A DNA stretch of 64,000 nucleotides from Lytechinus pictus (Eukaryota): positions 17,238,001-17,302,000 of the forward strand of contig NC_087251.1 of assembly GCF_037042905.1 (NCBI RefSeq). The letters are read 5' to 3'. Positions 1-43,818 of the stretch are shown piece after piece. The position numbers and the translations under genes were made by a program. The notes below the pieces were generated by a model. The model was not told where the DNA came from. It saw nothing but the letters and a program-made list of their open reading frames with translations, and did no database searches. The stretch's first letter is position 1; each line of letters starts with the position of its first letter.

Positions 1-304
1 GACTTTTTACATGTACATTGTGTAAAACAATTTAAGTCATATTATCATAACAATAATCATCTTCTTTCCAATGGCTAAATAATAAGATTGAAAATTTTAA
101 TAAATCACCTAGTGAATTCAGCAATAATGAATCTGTTATGTATTACACATGTAATTACAATGCAGAAAATTATTCAACTGTTTAATATTTCTAATCATTT
201 CCAGTTCCAAAGATTAAGTCTATCCCATAATTCAGTATTAACATTTTAGTCAAGAACTTATTTTTGATTTCTCTAACATTTGGTTCTATGTGTAATTTTA
301 TGCC

Positions 305-16385: not shown

Positions 16386-16864
16386 AAAAATAATGAACTG
16401 AACAGACTTACCATCCTTAAATTAATCTGCACATATTTTACACATATAGCCTCACACACAAACATAACCATACTATATAGCTAAACAAAGTATGATCAAG
16501 AAAATAATGCAATAGTTGCACATTTATGGAAAAGTTTTGTTCTTTTCTTTTTTATCACTGCCAATAGAACTTTGGGTTGAATGTTAATTAAGAAAGAAAT
16601 TAGTACCACAACCACACAGACCCTCCAATTCCCCCCCCCCCACACACACACACACAAATGTTTGCACAGACCAAAAGCTAGCCAGTCTATTATTAGTCTG
16701 CTATGCAGACTCTGAATGGCTCGTGAAGTAGGATCTACAGCTGGTTTGCGAAGCAAACCAGCCTGAAAGGGCGAGCGTAGCGAGCCATTTCAGATCTGCA
16801 GATCTGCAGGCTGCTATGCAGACTCCTTGAATCAGCTGTGATACACACACTGCAGATTGTGGGT

Positions 16865-17045
16865 GTGTGTGTGTGTGTGTGTATTTGAGTTTTGTCAGAC
16901 GTGTATCAATCAGATATGATTATTTACGTCTGGGACCGACCTTTAACGTCACCATCCGAAAGACGTGACCAGGGCTCGAACCTGTGCATCAATTTGTAAC
17001 TTCCCCGCATAGCTTGGATTACAGGCGCACGCCACAACGCCCAGT
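16865..17045 (-). mobile_element. Chimeric SINE: 7SL (Alu-domain) head + tRNA-type B box + Deu/Nin-like core + hairpin + (CA)n tail
   Basis: Minus strand ACTGGGCGTTGTGGCGTGCGCCTGTAATCCAAGCTATGCGGGGA (7SL 5' end), GGTTCGAGCCC, CGTCTTTCGGATGGTGACGTTAAAGGTCGGTCCC, then (CA)n; GTGGGT duplicated on both sides. Confidence 0.8.
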
Positions 17046-17567
17046 GGGTCTACAGTTGTAGACTAGTCTATTATCATCATCAGTTGTTTTGCCGAACTAC
17101 GTTTATTCGACTCCAATCCAGACCATGCTGGGATGGTCACAAACTCAGTCAGGAATTTATAAATAAATAAATAAATTTGTGTACTGCCTTAATATGTCAA
17201 AGCAAAGAATAAAGATCGGCCACAATTAATTTGGCCAATGTTAGTTGGCCAACATAACATCAGACTACACAGTTAAAAACTGGTGTTGATATTTAAATCA
17301 ACACAACATTAGGGACTCGGAGCTTCACGATGTCAAACTCAGCTCAAACCTTTATCAGAAGGGGCTATACATGTAGTACATTGGCGGTTCACTTTCCAAA
17401 CTAGGTAAAGAAAAACAAACTTCCTCTTCAGATCGATTCCCGGGAAACGCAAACACGCGGCATATGTAAACATATTTCAAATTATGGCCCAAATTCTCAT
17501 ATTAATCCTTATTAATGAAAATAAATCTGCAATCATAGAAAATGGAACAAATTCTTCGGTGACTCAC

Positions 17568-18820: not shown

Positions 18821-19034
18821 CATATTACCATGACCGCATCCAGACTCCATGCAGGGTCTTTGGTAGGGGTGTGAAACTCCGCATCAATTGATAGGCGAAT
18901 AGGTGGAGTATGAGTGGGTGCGAAACCTGCGAACCACTGATGAACAAGGGGTAATCCCCTCCCCCATAGAGGTATAGTATGTGAGAAGTCATGGACGATC
19001 TGTCCTTATAAATTGAAATGTCAAATTTCATCAG

Positions 19035-21815
19035 AATACAATACATGGATCTATAGAGTCATTGACCATTTTTATACTAATATATATGCCTATCCTATTC
19101 AAGCAGGGTGTATTGAAGAAGATATTTCTGACCATCTCCCAGTTTACTCCGTTTTTAAGAACTCCAAGTGTGTTAAACAAAGAAAAAATAGTGTAAAACT
19201 GAGAAACTTTCAGAATTTTTCAATAGATTCATTTTGTAATGATCTACATGTTACTACTGATTTTTGGAAAAAGCGTTTTAGAATGTATGGATCCTAATGA
19301 AGCTTATAATATTTTCCAAAGACAGTTCTTATTTGTTTGTAATAAACATGCTCCTATTGAGACAAAATGTGTTAAACAGAAAAAGAAAAATAATCCCTGG
19401 ATAACACGATGTATTAAGCGTTCAATATCGATAAAGCACAAACTTTTTTCTCAAGTTATAAAATCAAATTATAATAAAGATTGTTTGAATAAATATATAT
19501 AAAAAATACAGAAATCAGTTAACAACCGTCTTAAGGAAAGCAAAGCAAATACATTATGAACATAAGTTTGAAGCATACAAAAAAGATTCAAAGAAAACTT
19601 GGAGTCATATCAATGAACTTTTGAATAAAAATAGTGGCTCGAATCTGAATTAAAAAATTAACAAATTAGTTGTTAACCAAGAAAATGAACCTTCCGAAAT
19701 TACTTCATCTGTTGATATAGCAAATTCACTCTCAACAATTATTTCTCTATTGGGAAAAATCTAGCTGAGAAAATTGAGGAGCCATTACTGTTAATTACCG
19801 AGAGTTCATGGGTCCATACACTAGTCAAACATTTTTCTTCCTGCCAATAACAAGTTCAGAAGTTAAAGAAATGTTAGACACTCTTGATCAATCTAAAGCA
19901 AGTGGCTATGATGACATGGTGGATATCAAGTTTATCTCCATTAAAGATTGATCTTTTAAACTTCATCTAAAGAAAAAGATTCGTGTCTACTGTTGATATA
20001 TGCTATGAATTGTATTTGCAAACCTCTTTCGCATATATTCAATCTATTATTTACCACAGGCATTTTCCAGATAAATTAAAAGTTGCAAGAGTTATACCAG
20101 TTTTCAAAAAGGAGATAAAGAATTACCTGGAAATTATAGACCATTATCGATTTTACCCGCGATTAGCAAAATATTTGAAAAACTAGTGAATGCACGATTG
20201 ATGAAATTCATAGAAAAGAATGAAATATTGTATAAACACCAATATGGTTTTAGAAATGGATACAGTACGAAACTTTCACTGATAAATCTGATTAATCAAA
20301 TTACAAGATATACTGATGAAGGAAAGGTGACAGTAGGAATATTCATTGATTTTGCTAAAACTTTTGATACGATTAATCATTCTATTCTCATTAAGAAACT
20401 AGAACACTATGGCATTCGTGGTAAGGCAGTATAAGGGTTTAATGATTATTTACGAAACAGAAAGCAATTTGTTTATTATGATGGTGTAAATTCCGAATAC
20501 AGGTCGAATTCATGCGGTATTCCACAATGATCAGTTTGGGGTCCAACTGCGTTCTTGTTGTATATAAACGATCTGGCAAACTCATCAAATTATTTCAATT
20601 TCCGTCTTTTTGCGGATGACTCAAATTTATATCATACTTTCAATTGTGATGAACAACATATTGATTTATCAGAAATTAGTCTCAATTTAAACAATATAAT
20701 AGCATGGTGCAATGCCAACAAATTGACAATCAATGTTACGAAAACTAAATATATGTTGTTTAATAATAGACGAAAAAATATTTTGATATCAGGACAACTG
20801 TCACTGAAAGGAACTTTATTAGAGTGTGTTGAATCAACATTATTTCTTGGTATATGTATCGACAAAAACCTTACATGGAAGAAACAGGTTGACATTGTCT
20901 GCAATGTGCTAAGCAAAAAAATTGGAATACTTTATAGATTGAGGAATTATGTAACAAAGAGAATCTTATAATAGTTATGTCATACAACTCATTTATTTTA
21001 CCACATATAACGTATGGCCTGGAAGTATGGGTGCAAAACAACCCTGAACCCTATATTATTACTTCAAAAACGAATAGCTAGAATAATGACGTTCAACCAT
21101 CATACTTATCACTCTGCTCCTTTATTTTATGATCTAAATATTCTCGATATTTTCAAACAATACCAATATTTGATAGGAGTATTTAGGCACGATTTAATTA
21201 ATAATCGGTTGCCGCATAGTTTTATTGATTATTTTTCATTTAGAGACCATCCTTACAATACAAGAAATAGAGAAAAGCGAAATGTTAATCTTGACAAAAA
21301 ATAATACCAATTTGGGAAAACAATCAATTTCATTTTCTGGTCCTACTTTATGGAATCATCTGCCAAGTAATATTAGAAACACCCCCAGTCGTAAGATATT
21401 TAGCAAATCGTTAAAATTAATGCTACTGGAAGATTATAATTAATTTGGTATGGTAAAATACTGCCAAGATTCAAGATTCAAGATTCAAGCCTGAAAACAA
21501 ATTATTCTATATAAAGATTTTGTGAATAATTAAGATATTTTTTCTTGTAAATAGTGTAAATATGTTCACTGAAAATGATCGAAATTTTCCGCAACAGTAA
21601 TAAGTAGAATTAGTACTGAGTTTGATGTACAATATTGAGATTTAGTTAAATTTATTGTTTAAACTATGATAATGACATTATTTGGGGCTAAACTCGATTA
21701 GCATCTTGCTATTATGTTAGCTCCAATTACCAAATGTTTTGTTTATATGTGATGTACTATTCCTTGTAATTGTACCCGACAGTGATATTTGGTAATAAAT
21801 TCAATTCAATTCATT
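19035..21815 (+). mobile_element. 5'-truncated, frameshifted non-LTR retrotransposon (L2/Crack-type; APE endonuclease end + reverse transcriptase)
   Basis: IDHFYTN..DISDHLPVY (APE); FPDKLKVARVIPVFKK, QYGFR, FIDFAKTFDTINH, LYINDL, LFADDSN (RT); 3' stem-loop at 21683-21724; AATAAA and (TTCAA)n tail. Confidence 0.93.
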
Positions 21816-29200: not shown

Positions 29201-32200
29201 AAAAAAACCCGGGGGAAATGAGAAAATGAGAAAAAGAGGGAGAAAGGAAAAGTAACGTAATGGGAAAGAATGAAATATTGTTTATTATAATTTTATATTA
29301 TATTATAATATGTTATGTTACTGTATATTACATAAAAAAACATTTTTTTTCAAAACTTTATGAAACATAATTTGCTCAGGGCCTATGTCTTCATTGTTCC
29401 TGGTGCTCGCATTGTCTGTTTAACTAGATATAATAGATCTTTTTTTTCCCGAACACTTTAGTTTTCAAGTATATTTGAGAGGTCCTGACGTTGTCAAATC
29501 AAATCAATATACACAAAATATATTTCCTCACACTTTCGAATTATAATTGTTTTATGTAGTGACATATGCTTCTTTTTCATTACTACACAAAGTGATTGCC
29601 CCATTTTATGGTCTTAACATAAACATTTCCTGTCCGTGCCTACGTTCGCATTAGTGGACTGGTGAGATATTTCTGCTCTTCATGAATTCCTAAAATCATT
29701 CCTTAAAATTACCCTTTTTCTGATCTATATATCAACAATTTTGAGCTCGTGTTTTGCGCTCGCATCATTTGGTTAGTGAAATGCGTATGGTCTTAGTGAA
29801 TTCCTACAAACAAGCCTTATAATGCCCCTATTTAATGTCCTAAATTTTAAGCTCGCGCTCCGCGCTCGCAATATTTGATTAGTGAGATGCGTATGATAAT
29901 CATGATTTCAATGACTACAAAAAGTGCTTCATGACTTGTGTTTATAGATGCAATTGTAACAAAATCTGCAAGCGCTTGGCACTCGCATTAGATGAGTATG
30001 GTGAGATATGTATACTCTTAATGGATTCCTTAAAAATAGTCCTTAAAATATCCCTGTTTGGAGTCAATATAATTATACAGAAATGTCAGCTCGCGCTTCG
30101 CGCTCGCATCATTTGATTAGTGAAATACGTATGGTATTCGCGAATTCCTACAAACAAGCCTCAAAATGCCCCTCTTCAGGTCTGAATTTCCTAAATTTTC
30201 AGCTCGCGCTTCGCGATATTTGATCAGTGAGATACATAATTATGTTAATCATGATTACAATGACTACAAGTGTGTTTAGATGTAATTCTAACAAAATCAG
30301 CAAGCGCTTGGCACTCGCATTAGATGACTATATGGTGAGATATGTATACTCTTTATTGATTCCTAAAATATAGTCCTTAAAATGTCCCTGTTTGGGGTCA
30401 ATATACACAAAAAATTTCAGCTCGCGCTTCGCGCTCGTATTATTTGTTTACCGAGACAGGTACGTATCATGATAACAAAAATTTGCTTATAATGTCCCTT
30501 TTTATGTCTGAGTATCAAAAATTTTCAGCTCGCGCTTCGCGCTCACATTAATTGATCAGTGAGATACATATCCGTTTAATGACACGGTCCTTAAAATGTC
30601 TCTATTAGGTCAGTATACCTGGCAACTGAGCTCACTAAGTAGCTCAAATTTTTTGCTGGTGCCCCCCCCCCAATGCCATGACCCACGGTACGCCACTGAG
30701 CAAGATATATAAATCACCTAAAAGGCAATGCGAGCGCGAGCGAAAATTTTATACTGTATATAGTGACATGAAATATTTTAAAAATTATTTTTTCAAATCT
30801 TCTCATCTTCATTCGTCTTTCTCCTTTTATGTTTCCCCTTCTTTTTTCTCCTCTCTTTTGCCTTCATTTTTTTTTCTTTCTTTCCCCCTTTTTTCTTTTT
30901 TTTTCTCCGCCAAAAGGGGGGCCCGGGTCCCTCGCCCCCCTGGATCCGCCTATGAGTTCATTTTATGTATAAAAATACTTTTGCTCGGATCTAATGTTTT
31001 CTCACAACTGAACTCACATCTTATATAATAGAAAAATGGGCATACTCATAAATGTAATCAACCCAACCCAAGAGAAAATGTGCGTGAAAGTATACGATAC
31101 ACAGACAGCCAAACAAAAAGGAAAAATACATAACGACAATGAAATAATTATCTTATCAAATTTATTGCATTTTGAACTTTCCACTGACTGTGATCCAAAT
31201 CATTAGATGTAGATTGAAATTAAGTCAAAGTGAAATAAAATCACGTTGAATGACTGATTCTTTTTTTTCCATCTCGTTGCATTTTTATCTTATTTGACAT
31301 AGGACCACCAAATACGCTGATCTCTTGCCGATATATCCTAAGCTACGTAGGTTTCTTAGGATTGACTTGTACTTTCATGAATAGGGTCAACATTAGTGTG
31401 GCCATGACAGCGATGGCTAATAGTTCATACAGTACTTCCTATGATGTCTCCAACTCGACTGAACTATGTCCTGCTAGGTCGGAACATGATTACCAAGAAA
31501 ACATTAGGGTAGGAGGCTTTTACTTGATTATTGTTTTCCACATTCTTGGTGTATTAATTTAGCTTCGATGCGATAACACAAAATACAGATGTTATATTTT
31601 TGACAATCATTTAGATTATTTGAATCATGTTTCCATACAAAGATGAAAAATCACGATGATAATGGAGCACATTATCTCCCAGAAGAAGATTTACGGCACT
31701 CTAACACGTTAGCCGAATCAGACCTATATCCAGATGGAAAAGTATACCATGTAAACGGAAGAAACTGACGCTGATGAGGGCTTATATAATAATACATATT
31801 GGAATATTGGCGAAATGATAATTCCTGTTAATTGCAATGCTTCACAACAACGAAACTAAACGAAAACATCCATGCATCCAAGAGCGATAGAAGTTAATCG
31901 AGTATGCATGTCCCATACAAAGTTGGCAATAGCGAGTTTTCACAATACTACGCAGACGCTTTCTGGAACGTTGGAATTCTATTGAAATACTCGTCCAATC
32001 ACAATGAAAAACTCAGAGGTTATTGTCGAAAATTAAATTGGTGAATCGGGACAGCAGATCGCCCTAAGATTCGGAGCTGAAGAAAATTTGCAAATAATTA
32101 TGTCGTCAGTCTAGGACAAAACTGCTGTTTTGATTCAGAGATTTTCGACAAAGGGCTTTTCACAATAGATTCTCAATGTTCCAGAATGCATCTGCGTAGT

Positions 32201-35200
32201 GGTTATGAAAATTCCCTACAATATCCAACAAGCCACTCTTGTTTAAACTGCATCACTACCTTTATTGATCCAAAGAACGATCAACAGAACCTAAGCTAAT
32301 TTCTCTGAATAATGTACCAGTAGCCCCCCCCCCCCTATATATAAGAAATTATCAGCATGAATTGCGGTATATACGCACGCAGAAGGGATATTCGTTGTTG
32401 TGTCATTTCCAATGATTGAAATTAATGGTTCCCGTCCAGTTTCTTAAATTCCAATTTTTTTTCTAACTCACGTTCAATACCTTCATATCACTATTAGACA
32501 GGAGAGTTTCCATGGGACGCACATACACAGGAGCAGATCTTAGCCGCGATATATTATGGCTTTCCAGTTCTGCAGGTACCTGCTGGTGTATTAGCTGATA
32601 AATATCCTGGATCGTGCTACTGGTTGATAGGTTTTGGGTATCTAGGATCGGCTATATTTCAACTGTTTATCCCTTTAGCAGCTTATAACGGAGGAGCTCC
32701 AGTCATCATAACACTGAGAATACTTGCCGGTCTTTCCGAGGTATATATGTCTCAAAATCATTTTATCCTTAATCAATCCCAAATCTAATATCTGCTGGTA
32801 TATTTGAAAAAGATATAATTTTGGCTGATTGCAGTTTTCTGCACAAAATTTTAAAAAATGGAAAACGAGCAGAATTCAAGTACAGTTATTATCTCATCCC
32901 CTCCCACGTGAACCAAAATTTCATGAAAAGGATCCCGGACTCAGTAACACAAAATTGCGATCAATCGTAATTTAAATTACAACGGCCAAATAATCTAGAT
33001 CGTTTTATAAATCATATTGTTTTGCTTTGGTTTTGATGGGAAATCTTTGATTATAAACCGACCGGCCCCTGATTATTTGTTTACTATAATCATGTTTCAC
33101 CTCGAGAATTAAATTCAACTTGTTTTGTTTTTAAATATGGATTTCCCTCAGGCCGACATATGGCTGTATATTTTTTGTATGTAACATTATGATGATATTG
33201 ATATAAAAATGGCGCATGAACTCTTAATTAATTTATGAAAAATATAGGAAAAGGATGACCAAAATGAAAAGATAGAGAAAAGAGTGGATTATGAAAATTT
33301 CGTGCTCGAGCATTTGCTTACAGCTTTGCTTTGAGGATAATTGAGAGTTTGGAGACGGCCATGATTGAGGGCGAGTATATACATGTACGTTACATCGAAA
33401 TGAAATAGTGGAAGTTAATGTACTTTTCTCCAATAATGTATGTGTATCCCTGTGTTTCCACCGACGATGTTGTAAGGGATATTCCCGGTGGATATTAATT
33501 CGACAATTGCGTTTGCACTTAAAGCTCCATTGTTTGCACATTATCTATATTTTGCGCAGTTATAATTCGTTGATTGATGGATGCATGTTATTATGTGTTG
33601 GCAATAAATGAAACCAGGCATAAAGTGATCCTTTTTATAACTACAAAATAAGAAACTTGTGCTCTGTTCCAGTTAATCGTAATTTCATGAACTTCCCAAG
33701 ATTAATATTATGTACAAATAAATTGAATTTCTGATAACATTTTAACAGAGTGGAACGTACCCCTGTCTATATTCTATGATGTCCCGTTGGGCTCCCCCGG
33801 CAGATAGAAGCAAGTTACTCGCTATCATCTTTGCGGGTAATGTTATACATCTCCACCCAATAGTGGGGGATTGGGGGAGCGACGGTCTGGGGTGTAATGA
33901 ACCTAACATTTTGAGGGGGCCAGGTATGGCGAGCGAGCGAGCAAAACATTCGACATGTTAATTACAAAAATCCAATTTTGTGGTACATTTTGACATTTCC
34001 ACCCTTCTCTTTCCTTTTCTCTTTTTTTTTCTTGGTCGTTATTTTTTTTTTTTTGGGGGGGGGGGGCAGCGCACCAAAGCCTCCCACATCTGTACGCCGC
34101 ATACCGACTGTTAGGGGATAATTCAATTCAATTCAATTTATTTATTTTCTCTTTCAATCGTTTTACATTTACAATGATAGTTCAATATACATATTTACAA
34201 AATATAACATTTAAATAATTTTATAATACAATAATTCCATGAAATCGAAAGAGAAGGAGACCAACTAAAAAGCAGAGCTTGTAGGGTGAAGGCCCCCTTT
34301 TATAAGTACATTTTATGAATCAAAAATAAGATAAAATAAAGAAATAAACAATATATATACAATGAATAAAAAATAAACAAATAAAAATAAAAATAAATAA
34401 ATAATAAAAAAATAAATGATTCAGTATACTTTGTATACAGAAATCATAAAACGATTAAACATATATACAAAGAGAAATTATTAAACACATTTATATATTA
34501 AGTTCTGAATTACATTACTTTAGGAAAAAACGATAATCTAATATGAATTCATAAGATATTTTTTAAGTTTTCCTTTGAAATTTTGTATTGAATTACATTG
34601 TATGATATCCTTTGAAAAAGAATTCCATAATTTTGGACCAGTAAAAACAAATGTTTTCTGTGCAAACGAGTGAAGTGCTTATGAATTTTATCATTTTTTA
34701 CAAACATATCATTAAAAGGTATGATAAACTTGTACATTAACTGTCCTATAGTTGAAAATAATATAAATCTTTAACCTTCAATACTTTATTTCTCAAAAAC
34801 AGAATATTTGTATGTGCCCTGAATTCTGCATGATTAATAATACGAATCACTCTTTTTTGTAATATAAAAAGTCGATTAATTTGAGAATTCGCTGCTTTAC
34901 CCCATGCAACAACTCCGTAATTCATATAAGGAAAAATTAACGTTGAATATAATGATAACAAAATATAATGGGGTAAGAAGTGACTTAATTTTCTAATGAC
35001 ACCAATGTTGCGAGCAATAATTTTACAAATATTATCAATATGTGCTTTCCAAGAAAGTTTTTCGTCAATGATTAGTCCCAAAAATTTAGTAGATCGCACT
35101 CTTTGAATGACAGTATCATTTAAGATTGTATCTTTTGGTACAGTCGTAATCTTGTTGCTAAATAGCATGTAGCTAGTTGTTCTAGGTTAAGAGAGAGTTT

Positions 35201-38200
35201 GTTAGCTGTTATCCAATTAGAAACATTTTTTAGCTCGTCATTGAATATTTGCATCAATTGCTCTGAGTCGGGGTGCGACATAAATATATTAGAGTCATCA
35301 GCGAAAAGTATAAATGGAAGCAATCTAGATGACATAGCAATATCATTTATATAAGTAATGAACAAAAGTGGGCCAAGAATGCTGCCCAGTGGAACTCCAC
35401 AAAGGACAGGTTTACATTCAGAAATATTATAATAAAGTGAAACGAACTTTGAACGCCCGGTTAGATAATTCTTGAATTAGTGGTTCCCCTCTAATTCCAT
35501 GAGAAAGTTTATAAAAGAGAATGTTATGATCAACTGTATCGAAAGCTTTTAAACAAATCTAAGAACAAACCAATCGTATTCGAAGACTTGTCATAAGCTT
35601 TGGCAACTGTTTGAACTAAAGAAAGTATTGCATGGGAAGTGCTACTCTTTTCCCGGAAACCAAATTGAGTATCGGATAGGATGTTGTGCTTTAAAAAAAA
35701 ACATATGGTTCGTATATGTGAACCAATTTTTCAAGAATTTTAGATAAGTTTGTAAGCAATGAAATGGTTCTGTAGTTACTTGCTAAAGAACTATCACCCT
35801 TTTTGAAGACTGGTATTATCTCAGATATTTTAATTGATTTTGGAATATTTCCCGATGATAATGACAAATTGAATATGTAAATAAGAGGGTCAATTATATA
35901 ATTCATAGTTTTCTGTAGAAGGTTGTTATCAATGTTATCAAATCCTGCACTTTTATTTAATTTTAGGCTAGATATAATTATAATTATCTCCTATGCGTTT
36001 GTAGGAGAGAAAAACATAGAACTTTGATTTCTATCCCCCAGATATTGATGAAATGAATGGGAGTTTGTTGGTATACTAGAGCTTGAATCCAACTTGTGAA
36101 AAATAATTATTGAAAATATTTGCCATCTGAACTTTATCTTCAATAATAGAATCATTATGCATAAGCTTAGTTATCTTTGAAAACTTTGGACCATTATTAA
36201 TGGTAGAATTGATCAATTTCCATGTTTTTTAAGATCATTCTTGCATTGGTTAAATTGATCATGGTAATATGCATTTTTAGCAGTACGGATGACCCCTGTT
36301 AGTATATTCTTATAATTAGTATATTGGCTCCGAGTATTCTCAGTTAATCTTAATATATATTTGTAGTATAATAGATTTTTTTTTCTATTTATCGAACGAC
36401 GAATTGAATTCGTTATCAAAGGTAATCTGGGTGATCTTTTATAATTTTTGGACTTGGGCTTTGCAAAAGGAATATTTTCATTAATACGACTCATGAAGAT
36501 ATCAATAAATGTTTTATAGGACTCGTCAACACATTCTGTACTAAATACATCATCCCAAGATTTTCTTCTTCTAAACTCTGTTTCAAACGAGATATATTTG
36601 TATCACTATATACACGCCTCTTAGGTACATAATCGGGAAAGTTGTTTGGCTGATATTGATTAGAACAATTTATGAAAATTGGGAAATTATCAGGCATGTC
36701 TGAGATAATTATACCAGATTTAAATTCTGAAGTACATTGGAGAAAAAATTGTCAATCAGAGTTGCGGAAGTATTAGTAATGCTAGTGGGTCTAGAAATAA
36801 GTGGCAAAAAGGAGGCAGAAAGGAATGTCTCTAAAAAGTCATTTGCAAAAATATTAGTATCACTCGCTAACAGGTCATAGTTAAAGTCTCCCAGCATTAT
36901 CATGATTATGATACATCTTTTGTTTTGAACAGAATGATAATGTAGTAAATTATTTAAAGTGTCTAGAAAATCAGCACTATTGCTGCGAGGAGGCTTATAA
37001 ACAACTCCCAATACAGTTTTTCTGTTATCACGATCACTAATTTCAATAAATAAAGTTTCAAGTTTCTGCATTTTCATTCATTAAATTCATGTCTTAATAA
37101 TAACATACTCAAATTGACTCGGCACAAAAATTGCAACACCACCACCAATTTTATCAACACGATTATTTGTTATAAGTATGTTACTACCAATTCTCAACAT
37201 AATAATCATGAGATACGCATTGGAATTCTCCATGCAAAATAAAACAAAAATTAATATGCTAATGAAAATCAAGCACACTTCGTCTGAATTCATTAAATAG
37301 TTCCTTAATAAATCTCAAATATCGTGATCGTCTTCACGATCGGCGCGAATGTCTATCTGATCTTCGTCGACATCGCGATCATCATTCTCGTTATCACGGA
37401 TGATAACGTCGTCATCTTCGTGTGTCGGGCCGGTGTCGTCGTTCGAGGTCGATGAAGTCGAGATTCGACTCCGCAGTTGGTCAACATGACGTTTCCAATT
37501 CAGCGTCGAGCTATTGGCATTGACATTGAGGCTGTTCTACCTCAGTTCCTTAAACTAGGTTTAGTGGAAACTAGTTTAGTGGAAACTAGTTTAACGCTAA
37601 GTGAGAACGGTCGAAGCGCTCTTGGAAGCGCTCTTCCAAACCAGTTTGGAAGACCACCTCGCGATGTAGTTTTCAAGATCGCTTCGCATCGGAAAAGTGT
37701 TTTTAGCGTAAGTGAGGACACAACCGTTCTTCGGGAAGCGATCTTCGCACATTTTGAGCGCGCTACTCCACACGACAGGTGTAGAATGCCTATGCTGCGG
37801 TTTCGAATTTCGCGCGAAACGTGTCTCCCCACTGAGAGCGTTTCCATAGCAACAAGAGCGCTATACGTGAAGTGATTTTGAAAACCACTTTCGTGTGATC
37901 AAGTGAGAACGCTAGCAAAGCGATCTTTTAAACTGGCTTTCTGAACCGGTTCCCAGTAAACTAGTTTTAGGAACGTAGTGAGAACAGCCTCATTTACGAC
38001 ATAGGATACCGGACCGTTACGTTCGACTACCTTTCCGGGTAGCCATTGGTTACCTCGCCCGTAATTTCTCACAAGGACTTCTTCTCCTATCCGCGAAGTT
38101 TGCGAGAAGTGTGAGCGGTCTGTGAGAATTGTTTCTGTTCTGCCTGATGTGAACGCAACTGTTGAAAAGAAGCAATTCTCACAGACCGCTCACACTTTTC

Positions 38201-41200
38201 GCAGACTTTCGCGAATTTAAGATAGGAGAAGAAGTTCTTGTGAGAAATTACGGGCGAGGTAACCAATGGAAAGGTAGTCGAACGTAACGGTCCGGTATCC
38301 TATGTCGTAAATGTCAATGCCAATAGCTCGACGCTGAATTGGAAACGTCATGTTGACCTGCTGCGAAGTCGAATCTCGACTTCATCGACCTCGAATGACG
38401 ACAGCGGCCCGACACACGAAGATGATGACGTTATCATCCGTGATATTCGCGCCGATCGTGAAGACGATCACGATATTTGAGATTTATTAAGGAACTATTA
38501 TGGATTTTCGTAATTTTTGACGCAACAATAATTTTAATACGATCTTGTCTTGGATTATTAACTCACACATTTTTTGACCTTGTCAAAATTCCTGATTTAA
38601 TTGCCTAGTTCAGTGAAACAAAAAAGTATCATTGAATTTATTCTTCTTAAATCTAACTTCAGTTCCTGACTGACGTATATCATTTAATAATGTCTTATCA
38701 AAAGTTTCTCAAAGTAAAATTTGAATCTGGGAACTGATATCAAAGGAAATTGTTGAATTTCAATATATAGTTTCATGACCAGTTGAATATTTACTGGTAC
38801 AGTTATTGAGTTGCAAATTGAATTGGGAAGTTAAAAAGGTATGTTTAATCTAAGGGGGGAGAGATGTTATATATTGATAATGATGTCATACATGATGTCA
38901 TACCATGACTCACTGTTTCTTACTATTGTAGCTGCGCAGGCGCAATGCGGAATAAACTTGCTTTGGAATCATTTACCAAGAGTATCAGACGTGTGTTTAT
39001 TTATGTGCCTTAATTAATAATTATTGTTGATTAATTAGGAGTATATAACATTATCTTTTCAGGTTCATCAGTCGGCCAAATCATTGCCCAACCAATCTCG
39101 GGTATTCTCTCTGATTCCGACATCCTTGGTGGTTGGCAGTTCACCTTTTATATTTTTGGTGAGAAAAGCAATGTTTTAGTAATTCAATTAGTAAAGAGGA
39201 ACGGTGATTACAACTATCGTAGCTTACTTAGCAATAGCATGTAATTGTGAGAAAAAAATCGACATGCAGATACGGATTCAACCTCCTACTTTTTTCTTGT
39301 CAAAAATTGGAAAAACACCCCTTTACCGCCCTGCCTTGCAAAAACAATATAGATCCGCAAGTCAGAATTAAAAAACACTCAGCTCTTTTCGTCTGTATCT
39401 TTTTAGTTAGGGTTGTCTGAGCACGTACGAAACTATTTTCTATCTTTTACACAAAAAGGTGCATTTTACTAAACTTTAATTTGAATGGAATTTAAGCTCA
39501 TATACACCCTTCTTATTTATTGTATTCATGACAACACGTGGCGTATAGGTTCCATAGCAGTGCTTTGGTGTTTCTTATGGTTTGCTGTGGTCCATTCCTC
39601 GCCCATGACACACCCACGAATATCAGAAGAAGAGAAGAATTACATCATATCTGAACTCGGACTTGAAGATAAGGTATTGAAAGTGAACAAAAACTGCATA
39701 TAATCAGTCTATGTATCGATTTACAGAACAGATGAAACGTAATATAAAGAATAATATTTATTTTCAAAACAAGTAATTACAACTTGAGAAGTAATGAATG
39801 TGTTCATGTATCAGAACAAATTACTTGAGCCAACTGATGCGTACAAATTTTGCTTATACTCTATAGAGTCAAGATGATGGAAGCAGATTTCAATATAATT
39901 TCTGCATTTTTAATCTTCTATAACTTTAATCAAAGTGTTCAATACAAAGATGGGTTAAATGCCATTCTGAAAATTTTGAAAGAATTTAATATAGAAACTT
40001 ATGCCTCTCTCGAGAGGCATCTACAAGAAGATGCCTAATTTCCAAAATTGTCTACGCAAATGTAATGATAATTATCAATATATTTATCGCACATAAAATG
40101 TCGAATTAACTTGTGTATTCCTTTCTCCAGCCACCAAAGAAATATCCATGGAAGCGTTTTATTACGTCACTTCCTTTGTTGGCTGTGATTGGTGCAGACT
40201 TCGCTCTTATGTGGGTCCTCTACTCACTGACATCTAACCTGCCTATATTCTTAAAAGAAGCTCTCCGATTTGACATTTCTCAGGTATGGAAATACACACA
40301 CAAAAATTAATACCTATAGTAATAAAAAAAAACACCAGTAAACTTCCCCCTCTCCCCTCATAATTATGGTACCTGTGTGTTTTTTTTTCATTTTAGAGGT
40401 TACTTTGAAATATGAATATTGGGCCTTTATTCACTAACAACAAAACGGGGATTGAATAAAAGATAATCACCACCCCCAAGAAAACATCAAAGGAAAACAA
40501 GACGTGGAATATAAAGGTTAATCGGCGAGAAATAGGTCTACTTCTATTTTTTTCTTGCATGCAGGCAGGCTTTTTGTCATCAGTGCCACATATCGTCTTC
40601 TTTATCTTCATCATTGGTGGTGGAATATTCGCAGACTTCCTTCTCACTCACACCAACTTCAGCTTGACCACCGTAAGGAAATTGATGACAACATTGGGTA
40701 AGATCAGTTTGTTGAGTGTCCTAACTCAAGGAGCAAGTACCCCACCTCGAATATACTTGTTTCACAACGAAAAGAAAGAAGGCGCAATTAACGAGCTCCA
40801 TTTTAGTTGGGCGGAAAAGGACAAATGAAGGGGGGTGAAAGACAAAGAAATTTGAATAACCAAAGAAGTCGCAGCGGCCGAAAATTGGAAGTTGCAAGGT
40901 TGCAGCGCTTGCTCCCGGCGTCAGATTTTGGAAGGGGCACAATTATTACGTGATCATAATGCGCCCTCTTATGCTTGTGTCGCAACCACTGACAACGAAA
41001 TTTCTCACCCGGTATATAGGACAGATTTCCAAGATATACCACTGTTAATGGGTACAAATGCAGTACTTGATCTTAACAAGATTTCAAATCTGTATAACAT
41101 ATTTCGTTTTCATAAAAGTCGATAGTACCTGCCTAAGGGCGCAGATACGGTACAAGTCCATCCTTGAACAATTAAGTCGGGGTGGGTGAGGCAGATAATT

Positions 41201-43818
41201 TTCTTAAATAGCAAGAAAGGAAAAATATAAATAAAGACGTCGCGACGCCCTCAAACAACCAATTATCAAACAACATATTAGTTCCATCGAATGAGTTCTG
41301 ACTTCTGAGGATAAAAGCAAATCGTGAAAAAAGAAGAATTTTATCACTTTATCATAAGAAGAACTGGCGTTGGCTATACTTGTTTGATGTGGTGCTGGAT
41401 TTAAAAAAAAATTCTTATGAAATCACATTCATTTTTTGCTTGATTACTCTACTCGCTCACACATAGGCCTAACGATTCCAGTCTAAACGCTGATAAAAAT
41501 TTAAATTCAAACGTCTCCCTTGTATAAGGCCTATGAAGGCGGAGGAATACCCTGAAATGATAACTTTTTTTTTTTTCATCGTCAGGTATTTTACCATCGG
41601 GCATTTTCCTCGTCCTGGCGGGCTATGTAGGATGCAATGCAACTCTCGCCATCACATTCATTTCACTGGGGCTGGCCTGTACTGGTTTGGCTTACTCTGG
41701 ATCGAGTCTCACTATGATGGAGTTTGCCACGCCCTATGCAGGAATGGTTGTTGCTATATCCAACTCAATTGCAACATTCACTGGTTTTATTTCACCAGCG
41801 GTTGTTGCGGTCTACACAGAGAACCAGGTAGGTCTGCAGATTCGTGGAGTCAGAAGGCCAAGGGGGGGGGGGGGGGCGGTGGTCAAATAACGTATTTCGT
41901 GTTTCTTACCCCAAAAGCCCTCACGTTCCCTCTAACTTAATGATAAAGTAATAATACCCCTATTTCATTATTGAGAATAAATTGTCTCTCGTTTCGGTCG
42001 TCTTCCCCCACCCATTATCAAAGTGCTCTGACGTCGCCCCTGATAATATACGTGCATGAGCACTGACTTACAGATCATAGGCCTTGGGGCCATAGACCCC
42101 CAACAGTTTGGTTACACTTCGTAATTTCGAAGGTTCGTTAATCTGAAACACGTAAATTGCCCATAACCTGAAATGTATTATGATGTCCTTAAAAAAAAAA
42201 GAGTATTTAATTTCGAAAAAGGTTACATTTCATTTTGAAAAAAGGGTATTTTCCCTTTTGAAAAAAGTCCCTTTTTTCCTCCGGGAATTTTTTTCTGTTA
42301 AAAATGACTCCCTTATCCCAAAAGTTCCCTTATCTGGACATTGTGACCAACACAAAGTCCCCAACATTCTGATTTTTTCGCTCGATCAAGCAGCAATTGC
42401 TCAGAGAAAATCGAAATTAAGATGTTTGATTCAAGTTCTTAAAGGACAAGTCCACCCCAACAAAAAGTTGATTTGAATAAAAAGAGAAAAATCCCACAAA
42501 CATTACTCTGAAAATTTCATCAAAATCGGATGTAAAATAAGAAAGATATGACATTTCAAAGTTTCGCTTAGTTTCACAAAACAGTTATATGCACATCTTG
42601 TTCGGTATGCAAATGAGGAGACTGATGACGTCATCCACTCACTATTTCTTTTGTATTTTATTATATGAAATATTCAAATTTTCTCCTCATTGCCAAGTGA
42701 AACAATGATTAATTACTCCCTGAACATGTGGAATTAGCATTGTTTAATACTTTATGGTTCAATCAAGTTGGTCCTTATTGTCAAATCGGTAAAAAATGAA
42801 ATATTGTATAATTCAAACAATAAATAACAAAGGAAATAGTGAGTGGGACATCATCGTCTGTCTCATTTGCATGTCACTGAGTTGTGAATATCACTGTTTT
42901 GTGAAAAATAAGCAAAACTTAAAATGTCATAACTTTCTTATTTTACATCCGATTTTGATGAAATTTTCAGCGACATACTTTTTTGAGTTTTCTCTATTTA
43001 TTCAGATCAAAATTTTTCTGGAATGGACTTGACCTTTAATGCAATACATGCTTTGACCACACCATATACAAATATATCATCCTCCGATGAAACTATTACT
43101 GCATAATACCGTTTTTGTTCCTAGAATAAATTAAAATTTCATTTTCGGAAAAACGGACCTTATTTCATTTTGGGGGCTAACGAACCTTATTCGTTTTCGG
43201 ATTGACGAACCTTCGGAATTACACATGTTTCCCAAAAGTTTCATGATCAAGAAAAGAGTAGAAAATGGAATAAAGGGAAGGAAAAGGATGAACAATTATA
43301 TCATTTTCTGAATTGTATGTCCAAAAATCTATCATCAAAGCTCGATTTTTGTATTTTCAATTTTTTTGCTCGACCGCTTCGCTCGCTGGCAGCTTTTTGC
43401 TCTGTGTGCAATTTCTGGCCCCCATTCGCCACTGTGCATGGCATTTTCTATTTTACTAAGATTGCATGTATAACATGAAATATACAGTTTTTAAAAGATT
43501 TCATTTTTTCTCAATTTTTATTGCTTTGCCTGAAAGTGAAATCGTTGAATATGCCTGTCAAATTATTGCTTGTTTGGTACATTACAGGCCGATATAGCGG
43601 GATGGAGGTCATTTTTCTGGGTGACATTTTACATTGCTGTTGCAGCATGGTTTCTCTTCATGGTCTTTGGGACTTCAGAACTGCAATCATGGGCAAAATG
43701 TGATCAAGCAGAGAAACTTAACAGTGATCACCAAGAGACCAAGTATGGAGGAATAGTTGATACTGAGATAGCTTGTAAAACCGACAGAAATGTGTTGCTA
43801 CCCACTGACGACACCTGA
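26096..43818 (+). CDS. SLC17A5: SLC17-family (sialin-like) MFS organic anion transporter, 540 aa; join(26096-26201, 31303-31508, 32498-32740, 33749-33836, 39063-39158, 39549-39673, 40131-40283, 40565-40697, 41586-41827, 43588-43818)
   Basis: Ten GT-AG exons total 1623 nt in one open frame. Motifs ERKPLL, SCRY, RVNISVA, WDAHTQ, QVPAGVLA, WAPPADRSKL, HPRISEEEK, PW, YAG..SN match sialin/SLC17. Exact orthology (SLC17A5 versus an expanded paralog) is not established. Confidence 0.9.
27464..27990. mobile_element. piggyBac-like MITE fragment (one end only)
   Basis: TTAA|CCCTATC terminus; no matching right end found. Confidence 0.55.
29141..30698 (+). mobile_element. Non-autonomous hAT element nested in 26836-30954
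   Basis: TIR CAGTGGCGTA...TACGCCACTG; 8-bp TSD AGCATGAT/AGCAAGAT. Confidence 0.88.
31303..31508 (+). CDS. SLC17-like exon 2
   Basis: PPNTLISCRYILSYVGFLGLTCTFMNRVNISVAM...ENIR; ag/gt boundaries. Confidence 0.92.
31921..32230. mobile_element. Old foldback MITE
   Basis: Imperfect ~70-bp inverted repeats (CTACGCAGACGCTTTCTGGAAC / GTTCCAGAATGCATCTGCGTAG). Confidence 0.55.
32498..32740 (+). CDS. SLC17-like exon 3
   Basis: TGEFPWDAHTQEQILAAIYYG...LRILAGLSE|gt; 243 nt. Confidence 0.92.
33749..33836 (+). CDS. SLC17-like exon 4
   Basis: SGTYPCLYSMMSRWAPPADRSKLLAIIFA; 88 nt. Confidence 0.93.
34119..37290 (-). mobile_element. Decayed L2/Crack-type LINE (APE + RT), antisense in SLC17 intron 4
   Basis: GGGVAIFV, GVVYKPP, LGDFNYDL, TLIDNFF (APE); IIPVFKKGD, NYRTISLL, YINDI, LFADDSN, FLGLIIDEKLSWK (RT); (ATTGA)n tail at 34119-34140. 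Confidence 0.93.
37296..38499. repeat. Inverted duplication of a Gypsy integrase C-terminal segment
   Basis: Arms 37296-38136 (including a MITE) and 38168-38499 around a 31-bp spacer. Confidence 0.9.
37528..37991. mobile_element. 464-bp MITE with TSD ATT
   Basis: GAGGCTGTTC...GAACAGCCTC with ATT on both sides; the empty site is preserved in the opposite arm near 38305-38316. Confidence 0.92.
38140..39050 (+). mobile_element. 3' remnant of a Ty3/Gypsy retrotransposon: integrase tail, PPT and 186-bp 3' LTR (38865-39050)
   Basis: FKIGEEVLVRNYGRGNQW(LP)GKVVERNGPVSYVV..WKRHVD; PPT AAGGGGGGAGAGA; LTR TGTTATATA...TATATAACA containing AATAAA. Confidence 0.85.
39063..39158 (+). CDS. SLC17-like exon 5
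   Basis: GSSVGQIIAQPISGILSDSDILGGWQFTFYIFG. Confidence 0.92.
39549..39673 (+). CDS. SLC17-like exon 6
   Basis: GSIAVLWCFLWFAVVHSSPMTHPRISEEEKNYIISELGLEDK. Confidence 0.93.
40131..40283 (+). CDS. SLC17-like exon 7
   Basis: PPKKYPWKRFITSLPLLAVIGADFALMWVLYSLTSNLPIFLKEALRFDISQ. Confidence 0.93.
40565..40697 (+). CDS. SLC17-like exon 8
   Basis: AGFLSSVPH...ADFLL...TTVRKLMTTLG; 133 nt. Confidence 0.93.
41586..41827 (+). CDS. SLC17-like exon 9
   Basis: GILPSGIFLVLAGYVGCN...EFATPYAGMVVAISNSIATFTGFISPAVVAVYTENQ. Confidence 0.93.
42443..43035. mobile_element. Kolobok-like MITE with TTAA TSD
   Basis: TTAA|AGGACAAGTCCA...TGGACTTGACCT|TTAA, with long internal inverted repeats. Confidence 0.88.
43588..43818 (+). 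CDS. SLC17-like exon 10 (terminal)
   Basis: ADIAGWRSFFWVTFYI...FGTSELQSWA...DRNVLLPTDDT*; AATAAA at 43830-43835. Confidence 0.92.
   Translation, partial: ADIAGWRSFFWVTFYIAVAAWFLFMVFGTSELQSWAKCDQAEKLNSDHQETKYGGIVDTEIACKTDRNVLLPTDDT

Follow-up and report, generated by a model that had tools for sequence, protein, structure and literature searches.

The window analysed here, a stretch of 64,000 nucleotides from Lytechinus pictus (contig NC_087251.1, positions 17,238,001 to 17,302,000 of the forward strand), carries one copy of a young SINE family that, by sequence comparison, combines a head derived from the host's own 7SL RNA, a B box borrowed from the head of a tRNA-derived SINE and a tail of LINE type. 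Taken as a whole, including the proposed promoter and mobilisation steps, this is the best explanation of the observations, and we put its probability at about 0.75. No description of an invertebrate family of 7SL-headed SINEs was found in the open literature, which was the field of the search (Repbase, Dfam, SINEBase, subscription journals and the supplements of repeat libraries lay outside it). The family has probably not been described as 7SL-derived, and it may be catalogued as an unnamed or tRNA-labelled repeat.

The SINE copy and its genomic setting

The copy is 183 nt long including its tail, and its parts are listed in Table 1. The first-pass annotation had read on the minus strand a 7SL-like start with helix 3, the U-turn and the loop complement, followed by a B box, a Deu/Nin-like core, a 3' hairpin and a (CA)n tail, and all of these features are present where it placed them. 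The SINE does lie within the extent first given (16859..17049), but the element itself starts at 17045 and ends at about 16863. Similarly, the duplicated GTGGGT on both flanks is a real 6-bp repeat, but the true target duplication is 2-6 bp, since the repeat overlaps the first two bases of the SINE and its last CA unit; most simply, it would be a 4-bp duplication with 2 bp of microhomology. The Deu/Nin-like segment shares 8 nt with the tRNA-derived end. There is no internal T4 run, and the first one is found 187 nt downstream of the element.

Table 1. Parts of the SINE copy in the window (nt, counted from the first base of the element)
Feature	Position	Strand	Basis
Whole SINE copy, full length	16863..17045	-	Genome matches and exact 18-mer counts
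Head, 5' Alu domain of host 7SL RNA (helix 3, UGU U-turn, helix 4, closing helix)	16999..17045	-	Rfam RF00017; host 7SL alignment
Putative A box inside the 7SL head	nt 5-14	-	Position after PMC7245038
Spacer between 7SL head and B-box segment	16983..16998	-	No 7SL match; first bases can pair with the U-turn region (competing hairpin, MFE folds)
3' end of a MetaSINE-type tRNA head	16962..16982	-	Identity to host MetaSINE copy L148: 18/21 (window copy), 24/28 (longer variant)
Pol III B box, inside the tRNA-derived segment	16982-16972 (nt 64-74)	-	Sequence
Partial Deu/Nin-like segment, hairpin-forming	16932..16969	-	By eye against BivaMD-SINE1 (PMC4824008 supplement); predicted fold
LINE-type 3' hairpin (outer stem, 3x4 internal loop, inner stem)	16896..16932	-	Same fold in RNase H-bearing LINE tails
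A-rich spacer and (CA)10 tail	16863..16895	-	Sequence; tail length differs between copies
6-bp flanking repeat, upstream copy	17044..17049	.	Overlaps first 2 nt of the SINE
6-bp flanking repeat, downstream copy	16859..16864	.	Overlaps last CA unit

The copy is located 14 kb ahead of the first coding exon of a gene for a sialin-like (SLC17) transporter (31377-43815, plus strand, nine coding exons), and no tie to this gene was seen. A sialin-like protein of Lytechinus pictus matches one exon of the gene (41579-41833) with 100% identity over 95% of the exon, and the Strongylocentrotus purpuratus protein does so with 91%. The window also contains broken LINE fragments with endonuclease and reverse transcriptase, CR1/L2-like by eye (18944-20971 on the plus and 34746-37077 on the minus strand), as well as two pairs of direct repeats (48151-48450/53073-53372 and 57956-58255/60376-60675, 4.9 and 2.4 kb apart), each pair identical over at least 300 nt, which are either LTR-like units or assembly duplications.

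Origin of the head in the host 7SL RNA

The Rfam model of metazoan SRP RNA (Metazoa_SRP, RF00017) matched positions 17045-16988 of the minus strand with 29.5 bits and an E-value of 2.6e-5, while the other eight of the nine listed matches had E-values of at least 0.42. The score does not reach the gathering score of 70, which is no surprise for a head that is only a fragment of 7SL. Of the 25 matches scored in the host genome, seven are full 7SL genes (272-283 bits), and the 13 weak matches to the model that were fetched were all copies of the 7SL-headed SINE. Nucleotides 1-36 of the head are identical to five host 7SL genes at 34 of 36 positions, and nucleotides 1-31 are identical throughout to one host gene, L037 (31/31). 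Aligned with the same gene, SINE copy L049 has 42 of 47 columns identical (score 68; none of 1,000 shuffles scored above 29). Both the model search and the host alignment, proposed as checks in the first-pass annotation, thus bear out the 7SL-like start that it had noted.

The 7SL part comprises 47 nt, i.e. the entire 5' Alu domain with its closing helix, and neither alignment nor shuffle tests found any match to 7SL past nt 44-47 or so (p 0.5-0.9). On this sequence evidence, the SINE head is derived from the 7SL RNA of the host, of which no other part was kept. The closing helix of the head contains a U-A pair, as in L037, whereas the six other host genes have C-G at this place, so that an L037-like gene was the likely donor.

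The surroundings of the host 7SL genes have features of their own. Six of the seven genes (L031-L036; G000 C10 7.91-7.92 Mb and C1 16.87, 17.21 and 17.41 Mb) have a B-box-like motif 19-43 nt past the 7SL 3' end, just beyond the terminator, compared with a background of 3 in 639 windows. Three of these six genes are tandem duplicates, and L037, the likely donor, is the gene without this motif. Its position suggests a promoter with an outside B box, of the kind found in yeast U6. Three tandem 7SL genes (L031, L035 and L036; G000:C10:7911000-7921000) are preceded, at a distance of about 33 bp, by an older, diverged copy of the SINE, which sits between the start site and an upstream motif that these genes have in common with L033 and L034. 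It is one insertion that was duplicated later. Such a position next to 7SL genes is unlikely by chance and may reflect a liking for Pol III promoters.

The borrowed B box and the Deu-like body

MetaSINEs of the host, found with a motif composed from bivalve MetaSINE sequences, amounted to 153 tRNA-headed copies. Those at L127-L150 represent two families, one with an (ATT)n tail, which are probably relatives of SINE2-1_SP and SINE2-2_SP. The B-box segment of the 7SL-headed SINE resembles the end of the head of one MetaSINE copy, L148 (Table 1), with p 0.001, a value that is too favourable because L148 was picked for its likeness among the 153 matches; against the other host MetaSINE family p was 0.007. 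By this likeness the segment is taken to be the borrowed 3' end of a MetaSINE-type tRNA head. Two other sources of the B box were rejected: a by-eye likeness to 7SL itself failed the shuffle test (p 0.71-0.89, and p 0.82 for 7SL nt 49-298), and the motifs downstream of the 7SL genes scored 10-24 compared with 40 for the MetaSINE.

A MetaSINE has a 66-bp Meta domain directly after its tRNA head, and the Deu/Nin central domain of invertebrate SINEs measures 70-120 bp, as described in PMC4824008. The Meta domain is absent from the body of the 7SL-headed SINE when compared with the two host MetaSINE families (p 0.43 and 0.81), and what it has in common with them is limited to the tRNA end and, at most, one short arm of a hairpin. 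The next 38 nt or so, compared by eye with the part of BivaMD-SINE1 that follows the Meta domain, contain an exact 11-mer and both flanking hexamers in order; this part is termed a partial Deu/Nin domain in PMC4824008. Pattern searches of the host genome gave no match to a parent with a tRNA head (A box and B box ahead of this body), to a B box followed by the canonical Deu core, or to the Deu core alone with one mismatch allowed. None of 20 tail matches without the exact spacer had a tRNA head, and the SINE body motif had no occurrence in metagenome contigs. We consider a head swap that kept only the 5' domain of 7SL the likely origin of the SINE.

Tail hairpin and candidate partner LINEs

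A search for RNase H in the host genome gave 257 candidates, of which 150 were scored, many of them in open frames of 1,200-1,380 aa. Both LINE ORF2s that were scanned encode endonuclease, reverse transcriptase and RNase H. The tails were studied at 50 of the 150 scored loci, and hence in RNase H-bearing LINEs only. The two-stem hairpin of the SINE tail also ends four of these LINE families, with 94.5% of 55 cells paired; four of 11 pairs change on both sides, and three of these separate the SINE from the LINEs. Only 0-1 of 500 shuffles reached the observed values and slid controls paired at 25-42%, controls that flatter the fit, as the four families were chosen because the hairpin was seen and the structure was read from the same sequences. 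A similar hairpin was seen by eye in four more LINE families, while the families with frames of 1,346 and 1,379 aa end differently. Plain sequence likeness between SINE and LINE tails is weak (p 0.022 and 0.75).

The first-pass annotation had suggested looking for a LINE that shares the 3' hairpin and the (CA)n tail. The same two-stem fold was indeed found in RNase H-bearing LINEs, but none of the 50 loci had an identical tail or a (CA)n end, and a looser tail pattern gave only SINE-type matches among the 100 listed of 1,217. In three cases SINE and LINE tail are joined directly, with the LINE followed by the SINE (L121 and L107) or the SINE followed by about 50 nt of LINE tail (L028). The simplest reading of these junctions is template switching by a shared enzyme; another is insertion of the elements into each other's tails. 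The tail hairpin is likely to be a recognition site for a LINE reverse transcriptase, and its structure points to LINEs of I/Nimb type as candidate partners, the name Nimb being taken from papers (PMC4758252, PMC11481361) rather than from a tree.

At least eight families of RNase H-bearing LINEs were observed in the host (L051-L100, L121-L123), many with an intact ORF2 of 1,230-1,380 aa, and most of them end in the same two-stem hairpin with differing microsatellite tails. Families with reading frames of 1,269, 1,252 and 1,239 aa are among the intact ones.

A young and dispersed family

A DNA search of the 812-Mb genome with the SINE returned 1,525 candidates, and all 40 that were scored were 98-100% identical and nearly full length. 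Exact 18-mers from the tail and the spacer occurred 1,136 and 1,119 times, and the looser tail pattern 1,217 times, with no occurrence of the reversed controls. The SINE family is real and young and numbers at least 1,100-1,200 copies in the genome of Lytechinus pictus. The element might have proved to be single copy, as the first-pass annotation had considered, but its near-identical relatives are many and have unrelated flanks.

A sample that was not ranked by likeness to the window copy was taken from contig C1 as 40 stretches around matches of the spacer 18-mer, all of which therefore hold this word exactly; they contained 41 copies, two of which are one duplicated insertion. Full length was found in 34 of the 41 copies and a 7SL head, by score, in 38, the other three comprising one decayed head just under the cut-off and two truncated copies. 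Identity to the window copy had a median of 97.6% and ranged from 90.1 to 99.4%. There are several subfamilies with no clear difference in age (1.0-1.6% substitutions), and the commonest of them, with 18 of the 41 copies, has a head of 45 nt. Among the 20 tail matches without the exact spacer, 11 had the 7SL head, eight were 5'-truncated and one was split by an insertion.

Target duplications, which the first-pass annotation had expected around the copies, were found in part of them. Of the 34 full-length copies, 12 have flanking repeats of at least 5 bp, more than chance would give (300 shuffled pairings yielded 1.5 on average and never more than 5), and 22 have none of this length. In another set of copies, repeats of at least 6 bp flanked 11 of 69 compared with 1.5 expected, three of the 11 being artefacts of tandem copies. 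Thus, the element has the characters of a SINE (short, non-coding, with many dispersed copies and a uniform 5' end) together with marks of retrotransposition, i.e. a repeat tail of variable length, 5' truncations and target duplications that are short and often absent.

Several peculiarities were observed among individual copies. In six of eight 5'-truncated copies (L104, L107, L109, L110, L119, L120) the truncation falls where the Deu-like hairpin begins, which may be a site of stalling or processing, and in two of them (L119 and L120) the same short, unexplained motif immediately precedes it. At L025, L029, L039-L044 and L170 copies follow each other head to tail, with (CA)n and two further bases between them; those at L039-L044 have common flanks and ride in a larger duplicated segment. 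One locus (L124) holds four copies at 2.5-kb spacing, and the copy at L114 (G000:C1:22685800-22688600) is split by an insertion of about 1.6 kb. Near-identical sites within other repeat families were hit independently in four groups of loci (L007, L008, L009 and L109; L023, L025, L026, L029, L050 and L123; L011, L017, L021 and L151; L010 and L047), which makes a target preference possible, and LINE copy L123 sits in the same repeat as one such group of SINE insertions.

Proposed mechanism and alternative explanations

We propose that the 7SL piece supplies the A box and the start site, with Pol III starting at nt 1; nucleotides 5-14 match the A box of human 7SL, as printed in PMC7245038, at eight of ten positions by eye. 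The borrowed tRNA end would supply the B box 49 nt further on, so that each new copy would carry the whole internal promoter. A LINE protein would then recognise the tail hairpin, with priming at the (CA)n end, a route established for other pairs of SINE and LINE. This hairpin could by itself be sufficient to explain mobilisation. In the last and least certain step, putative docking on ribosomes through SRP9/14 would give the SINE an edge over tRNA-headed SINEs. Such an Alu-like mechanism is plausible on the model considered here.

The U-turn motif and its loop-loop complement, as defined in PMC8137916, are features of an Alu-type RNP. The U-turn is intact in 35 of the 41 copies, as is the GCU partner in loop 4, and the U-turn with three core loop-loop pairs is kept in all main subfamilies, although the family is too young for conservation of the head to show selection. 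An SRP14 exon is present in the host genome. The head could adopt the canonical Alu fold, at a predicted -8.1 kcal/mol, compared with -8.4 for L037. When the full-length RNA was folded by a program that models neither pseudoknots nor proteins, helix 3 had a probability of 0.04 in the window copy and 0.12 in the 45-nt subfamily, whereas two host 7SL RNAs had 1.0 and 0.98, and the U-turn of the SINE was mostly paired. Loop 4 of the SINE head contains 1-3 additional bases. The commonest subfamily has G-U as its outer loop-loop pairs, and its competing hairpin is weaker. We give slightly under an even chance to the model in which the Alu pseudoknot forms in the head, SRP9/14 binds to it and the RNA is docked on ribosomes making the LINE protein. 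More tentatively, we offer the fuller reading of a minimal natural Alu: a bare SRP9/14-binding domain of 45-47 nt, combined with a B box taken from a tRNA, would bring a SINE with a recognisable tail to the ribosome and let it outcompete tRNA-headed relatives for an I/Nimb-type enzyme.

The strongest alternative concerns the same SINE without any role of SRP9/14: the 7SL head would provide only the A box, the start site and a stable 5' end, and the tail hairpin alone would recruit the LINE enzyme. This could well be so, yet we would not bet on it. It agrees with the predicted competing folds, which bury the U-turn, with the lack of the 3' Alu strand that is kept by all published 7SL SINEs as PMC13023118 presents them, and with the LINE-type tail, owing to which there is no need to compete for a poly(A)-binding enzyme; moreover, given the motif past the terminator of most host 7SL genes, their 5' part may suit a separate B box. 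However, the head was cut exactly at the end of the 5' domain including its closing helix, whereas the first 15-25 nt would suffice for an A box, the U-turn and its core loop-loop pairs were retained, and according to PMC12199147 the 46-nt domain works by itself in human cells.

A head derived from a tRNA and 7SL-like by chance or convergence is very improbable. The starts of the host MetaSINE heads do resemble 7SL in a short local match (10/12), and these first bases may have eased the head swap, but the head scored 67-68 against 7SL (shuffle maximum 28-29) and only 16, at chance level (p ~0.5), against the two MetaSINE families. ARAGORN, moreover, found a tRNA in two of three MetaSINE loci and in neither of two loci of the 7SL-headed SINE, which also speaks against the better fit to a tRNA that the first-pass annotation had considered. 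Together with the unbroken identity to a host 7SL gene, the alignments and shuffle scores rule this origin out.

Equally improbable are one-off 7SL retrocopies or chimeras, a passenger of a larger repeat or human Alu contamination, to which a few copies in tandem or in duplicated segments (L039-L044, L124, L159/L160) and the short flanking repeats might point, but which are ruled out for the family as a whole by its copy number and by a uniform five-part structure with unrelated flanks on many contigs, variable (CA)n, 5' truncations and subfamilies, as well as by host-specific 7SL bases, the lack of poly(A) and the presence of 0.71 of 14 sampled SINE words in sequencing runs of a second organism. 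Runs labelled as sea urchin, echinoderm, marine, estuary or fish metagenome contained fewer than 5 words and carry no weight.

Comparison with known SINEs

Three independent origins of 7SL SINEs were listed in February 2026, all in vertebrates and with nearly the same central deletion (PMC13023118). Before the shrew mole, 7SL SINEs were known only from supraprimates and hagfish, sharing a central deletion (Kosushkin 2026, PMC13023118), and an account of 2024 likewise limits them to these groups and this deletion (PMC10886601). Besides Alu/B1 and the hagfish family, which the first-pass annotation listed, Urop of the shrew mole also exists (PMC13023118). The architecture described here was not found among the published 7SL SINEs, which are of vertebrates and arose by central deletion. 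The independent origin of a 7SL/tRNA hybrid, proposed at first sight of the window, agrees with a structure unlike that of Alu, and follows from the match of the head to host-specific 7SL bases and from the lack of a 3' Alu strand and of poly(A). If true, this is a fourth origin of a 7SL SINE, outside vertebrates and by another route.

Like Alu, B1, Tu (Euarchontoglires) and Urop, the sea urchin SINE starts with the 5' Alu domain of 7SL, and a tree-shrew unit is described as being of dual 7SL and tRNA origin (PMC13023118). In these SINEs, as characterised in the same source, the central part of 7SL is deleted, the 3' strand is kept, a poly(A) tail is present and L1 is the partner. None of this applies to the sea urchin SINE, which lacks a central deletion that keeps both strands of the Alu domain and whose B box is not 7SL-derived. 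By the sequence of its head it is a SINE1, outside the Alu/B1/Urop/hagfish type. A 7SL head can act as promoter and as binding site of SRP9/14; Alu entangles these roles, and the sea urchin SINE would separate them.

A close parallel is SINE1-1_EBu of the hagfish Eptatretus burgeri (Kojima 2020, PMC7245038), which is likewise chimeric, young and 7SL-headed, has low thousands of copies, a microsatellite tail and a partner other than L1, and was born by fusion with an older tRNA SINE. As reported there, it contains 7SL nt 1-96 and the 3' end, thus the whole Alu domain, takes both promoter boxes from 7SL, depends on an RTE partner and has duplications of about 17 bp. In contrast, the invertebrate element has only 47 nt of 7SL, a B box from a tRNA SINE, a Deu-like body, a tail of I/Nimb type and short duplications.

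Placing a new small-RNA head before a partial tRNA head is known from vertebrate DeuSINEs with 5S rRNA and partial tRNA (Nishihara 2016, PMC4824008), which set a precedent for the 7SL head swap. With BivaMD-SINE1 and the sea urchin MetaSINEs SINE2-1_SP and SINE2-2_SP, as presented in the same paper, the element shares the MetaSINE-type tRNA end and the Deu/Nin-like segment, and the tails of bivalve Meta and V SINEs have been linked to Nimb LINEs (PMC11481361). It differs from these relatives in that its head is 7SL rather than 5S, the Meta domain is missing and the Deu-like part measures only about 38 nt.

In the extent of its 7SL part (45-47 nt compared with 46) and its position at the RNA 5' end, the SINE corresponds to the minimal Alu domain SA46/AY46 (Moldovan 2025, PMC12199147). 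This 46-nt domain is reported to bind SRP9/14 and to reach about 86% of Alu retrotransposition in HeLa cells, and the lack of natural 46-nt elements was ascribed in that paper to a missing internal promoter or B box; the borrowed B box would answer this remark. If the element does act as a minimal Alu, the trick of Alu can be fitted on as a module and does not depend on a central deletion, on poly(A) or on L1. Because the host genus is used in the laboratory, the family is young and the frames of candidate partner LINEs are intact, a boost by an Alu domain outside the L1 system is directly testable. SA46/AY46 is engineered and relies on an outside promoter, poly(A) and L1 (PMC12199147), whereas the sea urchin SINE is natural and unites a borrowed B box and a structured tail with putative SRP9/14 binding.
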